A stretch of 64,000 bases of DNA from a virus, in IMG/VR virus record IMGVR_UViG_3300005683_000019, positions 65,622 through 129,621 of that record. One strand, given 5' to 3'. Made by a program: the position numbers and the translations under genes. Within the stretch, counting starts at the first letter, position 1; each line of letters begins with the position of its first letter. Below are positions 10,365-63,954 of this stretch, in pieces. The notes under the pieces are model-generated. The model made no database searches and was not told where the DNA came from. It saw nothing but the letters and a program-made list of their open reading frames with translations.

Positions 10365-10467
10365 CACTTGACAAGCAAGTTGCAACCACCTATCATGGTT
10401 AAAGATAGCGGAGTGATTCAACGATAAGGTGGACATAGGGGCTCACGAATCAAAAGAAAAAAGACGC

Positions 10468-10496
10468 TTGACAAGAAAAAATGAAGTAGGTAAGAT
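10468..10496 (+). promoter_or_regulatory. Sigma70 promoter of the giant ncRNA
   Basis: TTGACA-17bp-TAAGAT. Confidence 0.75.
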
Positions 10497-10502
10497 ACAC
10501 AC

Positions 10503-11417
10503 CATGCAAGACGGGAACCACTGACGAGATCTCCCGAAAAATGATCGAAAGCTCTACACTAAATAGAGCTATGGTTTAGCACTCTAGGGACGAAAGGAAC
10601 TAGTGACCGGATAGAGTATCGCGAGATGCTTAAAGATTGGCAGCCTCCCTAGCCAATCACCAGAAATGGCCCATCTAAACAATGGTACATATCTCCACTG
10701 GAAACAGTGGTCTGATCTAAAAAATCAGATAGATTGAAGATGTAGTGGGACAGACAGAATATCTGGCTAACTGTGGGATATCTGTAGCTCCGCAAGAGTC
10801 TACCACATGCAAATACATTGAAAATCGAAGATGAATACCAAGGTATGAGGTTCGAGCTTTAGCGGGCAAGGGCGCATACGAAGATGTATAAGGTTATGGA
10901 AGCTTTGTGCACCATAAAGGTATACAACAGTGTGAGTAGTCTTAGCGGATGAAAGTACAGGAGGCGTGTGGTATATCGTATAATAAAGTTATACGATGTC
11001 ACGGTGACACGCGTCTTAGGAGGTTACAACTTGGCCTATTGGTTGGGCATTAGTCTTTTAACACTAACGTAAGGTGGTTCGACTCCATCAGTTCATAAAA
11101 ACGCAAAGTTGTCACCGGCTGTAATTGAAAATAGCGTAACACTTGACACTTCGGTGAATCAAGTCAATATAAAGCTCGCAAAGCGATATATTGTTCAAGG
11201 AAAGTTGCACGTAAGGGGTAGCTCCCTGTACTGCTCGCAAGGTAGGCGGTAGACGGAACTTGGAATAGATTACAGTGACACTAGAATTGCCACTAGTATA
11301 AAAAGGCCGCTATGGTTGATACTTCCAAGGTGGAAGTGGATAAGGGAAGAACTTTAAGATTAAGCACCTTAGAGATAATGTCCCGAAAGGCAACCGCATC
11401 ATGCTCTAATCTCAGGC
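10503..11417 (+). ncRNA. Giant structured ncRNA, GOLLD-like
   Basis: About 915 nt without ORF, many hairpins with GNRA/GCAA loops, own promoter, tRNA-cluster context; GTGAGTAGTC, GCTCGCAA, GGGTAGCTCC and terminal TAATCTCAG match my recollection of GOLLD (no covariance search run). Confidence 0.65.
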
Positions 11418-11548
11418 TTGACTAATAGATTTCTTAATGTTGCCAAGGATATGTTTCATACGATTCCTTTTGAGTTCTCCTTGTTATAGCACGCCATTCT
11501 TGGCAACATTAAGAAATTTAGATTGACACAAACACTAAATAGATTTAA

Positions 11549-11623
11549 CGGTCTTTGGGTCATTGGTTGACCACCAGTTTTGGGTACTGGATTAAGTGTG
11601 TTCGATTCACACAGGACCGACCA
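11549..11623 (+). tRNA. tRNA-Pro(TGG)
   Basis: CCAGT-TTTGGGT-ACTGG, CGGTCTT/AGGACCG, CCA. Confidence 0.9.
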
Positions 11624-15454: not shown

Positions 15455-15594
15455 GTCTCTTTGGCCGAGTGGTCTATGGCAGCAGGCTGTGGGTGTAGAG
15501 TTATAGGCTCTTTTCAGTTCAAATCTGAAATCACCAAAAGTAACCTGCCGTTGCGAAAGCACAATCGTTGGTTCGAATCCAACAGGGGACTCCA
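15455..15594 (+). tRNA. His-like tRNA (GTG) with 50-nt anticodon-loop intron and long variable arm
   Basis: GTCTCTT/AGGGGAC-T-CCA, D-arm GCCG/TGGC, stem GCAGG/CCTGC interrupted at 15493-15542. Confidence 0.75.
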
Positions 15595-25745: not shown

Positions 25746-25821
25746 TGGTGGGTCGAGCGGGGTTCGAACCCGCGACTTGCGACTTAAAAGGACGCTACTC
25801 TACCTGCTGAGTTACCGACCC
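25746..25821 (-). tRNA. tRNA-Lys(TTT), canonical
   Basis: Cloverleaf, CT-TTT-AA, CCA. Confidence 0.9.
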
Positions 25822-63393: not shown

Positions 63394-63447
63394 TATTTTT
63401 TCCCTTTTGACCAACGTATTTATTACAGAATCAGAAAGATGCAAAAG

Positions 63448-63477
63448 AAAAATGGCAGCCAAAAGCTGCCATTTTTT
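63448..63477 (-). terminator. tmRNA terminator
   Basis: AAAAATGGCAGC-loop-GCTGCCATTTTT. Confidence 0.75.
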
Positions 63478-63743
63478 AATCAATTGGATAATAAGGATGA
63501 TCAGTCCCCAATGGTTCATGCCGCTAGGGCAGTTTCACCATAAAATGCGTCATTGCTTGCATTTATATTTTTTATGCTGATTAGGTCAGTCATCTATCCA
63601 GTTGTCCATTTGTTTACTCTTCTTCCCGTCGAAGCCTTGCCGACCCATCAACAGAAAACTTAATACACAAATTTTCTCTTGGTGGATCGGACGGGAATCG
63701 AACCCGTGTCCGCGAAGCCTTTCGACTTACTTCATACAACCAT
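63478..63743 (-). ncRNA. ssrA: Two-piece (circularly permuted) tmRNA
   Basis: Acceptor piece ...GGACACGGGTTCGATTCCCGTCCGATCC-ACCA precedes coding piece GGGTCGG...TTCGACGGG; G3:U70; tag ASNDAFYGETALAA-stop at 63516-63560. Confidence 0.9.
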
Positions 63744-63747
63744 ATTT

Positions 63748-63954
63748 TTATTTATAACTATTAATCTTATCTTCTAAACGTGCCATTTTTAACTGAATTT
63801 GTTCATAAACTTTATCATAACCAAAAATTGTAGCCATTTGTTCCATCATGATGATCACATCTGATATTTCACTAATCCAATCTTCGACAGTATCCCTATT
63901 TTGAGCTTTTCTTCCCACTAAAGTTAGAAACTCTCCACATTCTCCAACCGCCAT
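63748..63954 (-). CDS. MazG-like nucleotide pyrophosphohydrolase (5' end uncertain)
   Basis: ECGE...EISDV; homology-like text WGVADQIN continues upstream to an in-frame TAA. Confidence 0.6.
   Translation of the reverse strand: MAVGECGEFLTLVGRKAQNRDTVEDWISEISDVIIMMEQMATIFGYDKVYEQIQLKMARLEDKINSYK

Follow-up and report, generated by a model that had tools for sequence, protein, structure and literature searches.

A tRNA-derived module lies in the variable linker of a GOLLD RNA encoded by a virus. It has probably been kept for its fold and may serve in the lumen of the GOLLD cage as a tethered mimic of a tRNA body, accessory to the cage. The module keeps three tRNA arms (D, anticodon, and T) and the nucleotides that form the elbow, namely G18, G19, and those of the T loop; the acceptor stem is lost. 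This core sits on a predicted linker-closing helix of 11 bp, whose 3' strand is conserved GOLLD sequence, so that the module would stay covalently within the ~915-nt RNA. Judged by its sequence, it should be neither excisable by RNase P or RNase Z in the manner of a normal tRNA nor chargeable. As the published cage structures suggest, the lumen of the GOLLD multimer would hold one L-shaped module per subunit, and the module may offer a handle for a factor that binds the tRNA shape. This last step is the weakest and is a conjecture. Sister GOLLDs lack the module, so it is accessory and is not required for the cage.

The GOLLD locus and its tRNA-like module

The source is a 129.6-kb IMG/VR virus record that is estimated to be ~60% complete, and the 64,000-nt stretch of it that was analyzed is referred to as the window. 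The Rfam GOLLD family, RF02032, matches the window at 10961-11418 with 201.8 bits (gathering score 150; E 1.8e-55) over model positions 1-416, which places the locus in the family. The whole GOLLD RNA spans 10503-11418 (+) and is composed of a variable 5' domain followed by the Rfam-modelled part. A promoter-like site (TTGACA, a 17-nt spacer, and TAAGAT) at 10468-10496 (+), upstream of the RNA, scores 10/12 in a consensus scan. It is a pattern match only, and the putative transcription start, and with it the 5' boundary of the RNA, is placed near 10503 on this basis. No ORF of at least 60 aa was found within 10437-11595. Together with the promoter-like site, this fits a non-coding transcript of ~915 nt. 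The variable linker is preceded by a conserved GOLLD hairpin at 10961-11019 (+), whose alignment to positions 1-62 of the Rfam model has a high posterior probability.

The surroundings are those of a GOLLD in a phage or prophage with a tRNA array. ARAGORN detects 20 tRNAs and a tmRNA in the window, which form a dense tRNA island. The tmRNA gene is permuted (two-piece) and lies at 63425-63787 (-), where the Rfam model tmRNA_permuted scores 118 bits and the tag predicted by ARAGORN is ASNDAFYGETALAA. Xanthomonas phage XacN1 also has a permuted tmRNA gene (L002 11-430), which lies ~1 kb upstream of its GOLLD match. At 15455-15591 of the window, an Rfam tRNA match extends over 137 nt (37.7 bits), the mark of an interrupted tRNA. 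Directly after the GOLLD 3' end, and before a tRNA-Pro promoter-like region, is a 25-nt inverted repeat whose arms (11426-11450 and 11496-11520) are 92% complementary and separated by 45 nt. The GOLLD of metagenome contig L115 has a comparable long inverted repeat downstream, and the element may act as a terminator or a processing hairpin that has been conserved together with the GOLLD. In the L011 phage, the 3' end of the GOLLD is followed after ~100 nt by a match to the manA RNA (L117 1198-1401, -), which falls below threshold (43.9 bits; gathering score 55.2; E 2e-8).

The tRNA-like module occupies 11028-11093 (+), inside the linker that the GOLLD model leaves unaligned and unstructured, which is the position of nested tRNAs. 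Its match to the Rfam tRNA model RF00005 scores 34.1 bits (gathering score 29) as a local alignment to positions 4-67 of 71. The E-value is 0.0024 when the 64-kb window is searched against all families and 7e-6 for a 201-nt stretch, and the match is beyond chance. ARAGORN, which requires a full acceptor stem, did not include the module among its tRNAs in the window. The 111-nt stretch does not stand out in folding energy (z = -1.13; 26 of 200 shuffles fold as well), and the support for the module is the covariance model and the homologs, not thermodynamics.

Three arms of the cloverleaf are present, as the first-pass annotation had described them from the letters of the sequence, including the 8-nt anticodon loop. 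The D arm (11034-11048, +) has the 4-bp stem GCCT/GGGC and the loop ATTGGTT, which carries G18 and G19. The anticodon arm (11050-11067, +) has a 5-bp stem and the loop CTTTTAAC at 11055-11062. U33 is present in this loop, which has 8 nt instead of 7, and the Rfam tRNA alignment places one extra base in it. The T arm (11073-11089, +) has a 5-bp stem, pair probabilities of ~0.95, and the canonical loop TTCGACT. The nucleotides that give a tRNA its L shape (U8, A14, G18, G19, T54, T55, C56, and A58) are all found in the module and in three orthologs. The acceptor end is different. There is no 7-bp stem with a discriminator and CCA; positions 1-72 to 3-70 are mismatched, and four pairs at most are possible. 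These are the AACT/AGTT pairs noticed at the outset, 11028-11031 with 11090-11093. The 3' side then continues straight into conserved GOLLD sequence, and the lack of CCA reported earlier is borne out. Without a usable acceptor stem or CCA, and with an 8-nt loop, the module is indeed no normal tRNA.

The linker is closed by a helix between GGTTACAACTT at 11022-11032 (+) and AAGTTGTCACC at 11106-11116 (+), paired at 10 of 11 positions; the 3' strand is part of the conserved GOLLD sequence. This is the helix from which the unit had been said to hang. The 3' strand of the acceptor remnant, AGTT at 11090-11093 (+), competes with 11107-11110 of the closing helix for AACT at 11028-11031. In the thermodynamic model, pair probabilities are 0.67-1.0 for the closing helix, and the ensemble probability of the acceptor remnant is ~0. 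Enforcing the four acceptor pairs gives -17.5 kcal/mol, compared with -25.9 kcal/mol for the fold with the closing helix, a cost of 8.4 kcal/mol. Formation of the 4-bp remnant is therefore disfavored, and the closing helix wins the shared letters.

The same helix is predicted in four module-bearing orthologs and in the tRNA-less XacN1 and X1. RNAalifold keeps nine of its pairs, one with both sides changed. In XacN1, Xanthomonas phages X1 and BUDD, and Stenotrophomonas phages RAS14 and CM1, the helix is capped by a plain loop. Between the module and the 3' strand is an A-rich spacer (11094-11105, +), part of the conserved GOLLD motif with which the linker ends. The spacer covers upper-case positions of the Rfam consensus and is also found in XacN1, RAS14, and X1, all without a tRNA. 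Because the helix is shared with relatives that carry no tRNA, the module can be described as a three-arm cloverleaf core that caps a helix native to the GOLLD linker.

Conservation of the fold among GOLLD linkers

In a tree of the GOLLD 3' core, the window groups with L052, L182, and L274 in one clade (support 0.935) that is sister to XacN1. L052 is a 307-kb phage, whose module sequence is identical to that carried by metagenome contig L115; L182 is a 153-kb phage, and L274 is a contig binned with a Rhodoferax MAG. Every member carries the module at one shared point between shared flanks. Their acceptors are similarly reduced, with four possible pairs in the window and 3, 3-4, and 0-1 pairs in the three orthologs. 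The Rfam tRNA matches in the clade are local (4-67, 5-66, and 5-66), and the L052 copy is below threshold. The copies in L052 and L182 have a 4-bp T stem and a bulged T stem, respectively, and these defects could equally be read as slow decay.

The four orthologs were segmented into arms by hand, and pairs were counted on this segmentation. Standard pairing holds in 55 of the 56 stem cells, and both sides have changed in 10 of the 14 stem pairs; with four orthologs, two of them closely paired, these changes represent few independent events. None of 5000 column shuffles reached the observed pairing (mean 39.5, sd 2.7). All four D-arm pairs are kept through changes on both sides, and T-arm positions 50-64 and 51-63 covary. 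The anticodon stem covaries as well, and its loop is conserved neither in sequence nor in size. On an unguided MAFFT alignment, RNAalifold independently yields the closing helix and the D arm, and the other arms in part; nine of its pairs are compensated.

Divergence is considerable over the same comparisons. Identity between the window and L052 is 67% in the module and 85% in the core; the corresponding values are 57% and 75% for L182 and 58% and 73% for L274. Branch lengths of the GOLLD core within the clade are 0.2-0.3 substitutions per site. The module diverges faster than the core, so the preserved pairing is not simply the result of slow divergence. U8, A14, G18, G19, and the T-loop consensus TTCRA are invariant in all four modules. 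The anticodon loops are CTTTTAAC, CCTTATA, ATCTAAA, and CCTCTAA, with 7 or 8 nt and U33 in two of four. These alignments show selection that appears to have kept the fold of the module, and not its anticodon, across the four-member subclade. Separate capture of a different tRNA by each of the four GOLLDs would make the covariation trivial. L182 shares its anticodon stem and T loop with the unit in L036, which has 5/7 acceptor pairs, and this suggests that the truncated form arose from a nested tRNA that was more complete.

A wider set of GOLLDs was assembled by pattern scans and a profile of the GOLLD 3' core, which gave 111 cores and 93 distinct linkers. Nine of the 93 linkers (~10%) contain a tRNA-like unit. 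Two further units, L060 and L036 (identical to L107), came from an earlier scan, for a total of eleven tabulated. None of the eleven has a perfectly paired 7-bp acceptor stem, and their anticodon loops are all different. The loop has 8 nt in three (the window, L036, and L212), and U33 is missing in three. Units from other clades (L060, L036, L305, and L279) match the full Rfam tRNA model, positions 1-71, with 47-55 bits. These four units, and those of L182 and L274, have the same linker position as the module in the window. In the other clades, 5-6 of 7 acceptor pairs are present, and the units of L165 and L168 end in ACCA. Nested units are patchy in their distribution: they are absent from L011 and present in L036, absent from L131 and present in L165 and L168, and absent from XacN1 and RAS14.

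The first pattern scan for the GOLLD core gave no matches. A 16-mer of the GOLLD 3' end hit 110 loci, of which only ~9 are GOLLDs, and a flank-to-flank pattern returned 117 new loci and no GOLLD. A pattern scan of viral and metagenome sequences found only L052 and L115. The combination of the linker motif and a CCGG tail matched L004 alone, and L004 was discarded as a chance match in coding sequence. An exact T-arm match in L003 was rejected as an ortholog because it belongs to a free-standing tRNA-Tyr upstream of another GOLLD. Among 151 sampled genomes of the order of the Rhodoferax MAG, a GOLLD was found in one, the MAG itself. The cultured phages of the phage collection yielded tRNA-less relatives only and no truncated module.

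L165 and L168 are close GOLLDs whose nested tRNAs have identical acceptor stems, D stems, and encoded ACCA, with the anticodons GAT and GTT, respectively; by sequence, the anticodon appears to have been switched through few point changes. A unit at L119 1830-1901 (-), identical in L036 and L107, has the 8-nt loop ATTGATAA and a near-complete acceptor and is reported by ARAGORN as tRNA-??? (tgat). The nested tRNA in the L212 linker likewise has an 8-nt loop, ATGGTTAA, and a near-complete acceptor. The two loops look like Ile(GAT) and Asn(GTT) loops, respectively, with one base added 5' of the anticodon.

These data bear on whether the module is a decaying relic, that is, a once-complete nested tRNA that is eroding and of no use to the phage. 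The patchiness of nested units among close GOLLD relatives would suit such erosion, as would the truncated acceptor, the irregular loops (8 nt, or C33/G33), and the sub-threshold score of the L052 copy. A mycobacterial pseudo-tRNA without detectable separate expression (PMC6582537) is a further parallel. Neutral decay should nevertheless have broken the stems. Near-complete pairing with 10 compensated pairs has instead survived while module identity fell to 57-67%, and the elbow nucleotides are invariant. A relic is thus unlikely, though it retains some plausibility.

The module might alternatively be a processing signal, comparable to tRNA punctuation: RNase P, RNase Z, or some other tRNA-processing enzyme would recognize the tRNA shape and split the GOLLD precursor where its 5' and 3' domains meet. 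The position is suggestive, exactly between two independent GOLLD domains (PMC12286853), and the isolated 3' domain can multimerize (PMC12990946). The units of other clades, with 5-6 of 7 acceptor pairs and, in two cases, ACCA, could be substrates of RNase P or RNase Z. In the clade of the window, however, only 0-4 acceptor pairs are left, and the closing helix occupies the 5' strand of the acceptor, so the helix that RNase P measures is absent. Relatives without a tRNA manage without such a signal. We regard this role as very unlikely.

The lysine-like anticodon loop

The first-pass annotation had called the module tRNA-Lys-like and suggested that a multimer could display many Lys anticodon loops as a decoy. 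The likeness consists of seven loop letters: the first seven equal the canonical tRNA-Lys(UUU) loop. The module was also considered as a copy of a phage tRNA-Lys gene, which was rejected because its best local similarity is to tRNA-Gly(GCC) and tRNA-Pro. That similarity runs through generic D-loop and T-arm letters, and the body is less like either of the phage's tRNA-Lys genes than like its tRNA-Gly and tRNA-Pro, a point that also weighs against a Lys decoy.

A decoy of this kind would present many Lys-type loops on the multimer and soak up or distract an anticodon nuclease such as PrrC, RloC, or the PARIS effector AriB. The phage itself is a plausible party to a conflict over tRNA-Lys, given the two real tRNA-Lys(UUU) genes in the window, the Rnl2-type RNA ligase domain elsewhere in the genome, and the documented phage tRNAs that counter such nucleases. 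Phage tRNA variants that neutralize tRNA-Lys nucleases have been described (PMC11464382, PMC10264068), and the match of the first seven letters and the variability of loops among nested units, which could reflect an arms race, would agree with a decoy. Comparison of the nested domains across homologs, which the annotation had proposed as a check, gives the Lys-specific version no support. The Lys-like loop occurs only in the window copy; the orthologs have CCTTATA, ATCTAAA, and CCTCTAA, and two of the three have lost U33. The loop has 8 nt and not 7, and the many nested units without U33 would be poor mimics. The linker would also be expected inside a closed cage and not displayed on its outside. 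PrrC-type nucleases read modifications at the wobble position and at position 37. Any modifications read by the nuclease would need to be installed on an RNA without an acceptor. A Lys decoy is accordingly a highly improbable function for the module.

A search for an Rnl1-type ligase gave no match, and the control genomes were equally silent. One of the tRNA-Lys(UUU) genes, at 25746-25821 (-) of the window, looks canonical with the exception of an apparent U-U mismatch in the anticodon stem, which may be relevant to evasion of anticodon nucleases.

Release of the module by unusual processing for use in decoding, whether as tRNA-Lys or, in view of its 8-nt loop, as a four-base (+1 frameshift) decoder, is scarcely credible: a score above the Rfam tRNA threshold, canonical elbow nucleotides, and the recurrence of 8-nt loops in nested units with near-complete acceptors (L036/L107 and L212) speak for it, but the module has no 7-bp acceptor, discriminator, or CCA, its 3' side enters conserved GOLLD sequence directly, its anticodon is not conserved among orthologs, and two ordinary tRNA-Lys(UUU) genes are already present in the window.

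Significance and comparison with known systems

Closed cages are known for the env-38 and Streptococcus agalactiae GOLLDs (PMC12286853, PMC12990946). The premise of the first-pass annotation that the giant RNA oligomerizes agrees with the published 12- to 14-mer cages (PMC12286853, PMC12990946). The 5' and 3' domains of GOLLD are structurally independent (PMC12286853), and the isolated 3' domain still multimerizes (PMC12990946). The variable linker corresponds to J13/15 (PMC12990946), it lies inside the cage, and tRNAs occur in it (PMC12286853). By homology, we infer that the GOLLD in the window would form a cage of this type and that its linker would face the lumen.

The annotation had also mentioned tRNAs nested in some GOLLDs, correctly, since these are published (PMC12286853, PMC12990946, PMC6582537), and the arrangement is therefore not novel. 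GOLLD-nested tRNAs go back to Weinberg et al. 2009, as cited in PMC6582537. A tRNA-Phe in J13/15 of a Mycolicibacterium GOLLD points inward, and "inhibited storage" has been proposed for it (review PMC12990946). In Mycobacterium aubagnense, the GOLLD contains a pseudo-tRNA gene, and Northern blots revealed no separate RNA (Behra et al. 2019, PMC6582537).

Nested tRNAs are one of the few clues to the function of GOLLD despite the solved cage structures. The published hypotheses, cargo tRNA and "inhibited storage," assume a real tRNA that awaits release. A module that would be neither releasable nor chargeable, with its fold kept under apparent selection and its anticodon free to drift, argues that the cage uses the shape of a tRNA body and not a decoding tRNA. 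A bolder extension of the tethered-mimic reading, itself distinctly doubtful, is that the GOLLD cage acts as an RNA-only trap in which non-chargeable tRNA bodies serve as lumen bait and sequester a host factor that recognizes the tRNA shape. Candidate targets would be an anticodon nuclease, a tRNA-modifying enzyme, or a tRNA-processing enzyme, and the fast-changing loop would track the target. If true, this would be the first function for GOLLD. A natural experiment is offered by the module-bearing window, L052, L182, and L274 on one side and the cultured, module-less XacN1, RAS14, and CM1 on the other. The gain is incremental, as the module is a well-preserved example of an already published arrangement. 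What is added is an acceptor-less core conserved throughout a clade, a closing helix common to tRNA-less relatives, and free drift of the anticodon loop.

The closest known systems are the published nested tRNAs (Kretsch et al. 2025, PMC12286853; PMC12990946). The module shares with them the RNA family, a place in the linker with the conserved hairpin on one side and the first pseudoknot strand of the 3' domain on the other, the tRNA-island and phage context, and an expected lumen-facing orientation. It differs in that the acceptor is essentially gone and a closing helix is present instead, in its 8-nt loop, and in a fold that is conserved while the anticodon drifts. Acceptor loss, an 8-nt loop, and a drifting anticodon are not described in PMC12286853, PMC12990946, or PMC6582537, where nested tRNAs are mentioned briefly. 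The M. aubagnense pseudo-tRNA is also a tRNA-like unit in a GOLLD that was judged to be no working tRNA gene. It belongs to an actinobacterial tRNA-array lineage, and it is likened to the module from its published description.

In tmRNA, too, a tRNA-like domain is embedded in a larger RNA and reuses part of the tRNA fold. There, the acceptor and T arms are retained and the molecule is charged. The module described here keeps the D, anticodon, and T arms without the acceptor and so represents the opposite half. Finally, nuclease-evading phage tRNAs (PMC10264068), among them the T5 tRNA-Lys that acts against PARIS (PMC11464382), resemble the module in their tRNA-island context, Lys(UUU)-type letters, and irregular loops. 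Those tRNAs are free, complete, and chargeable, and they replace the cleaved host tRNA (PMC10264068, PMC11464382), whereas the module is tethered and acceptor-less and its likeness to tRNA-Lys is not conserved.
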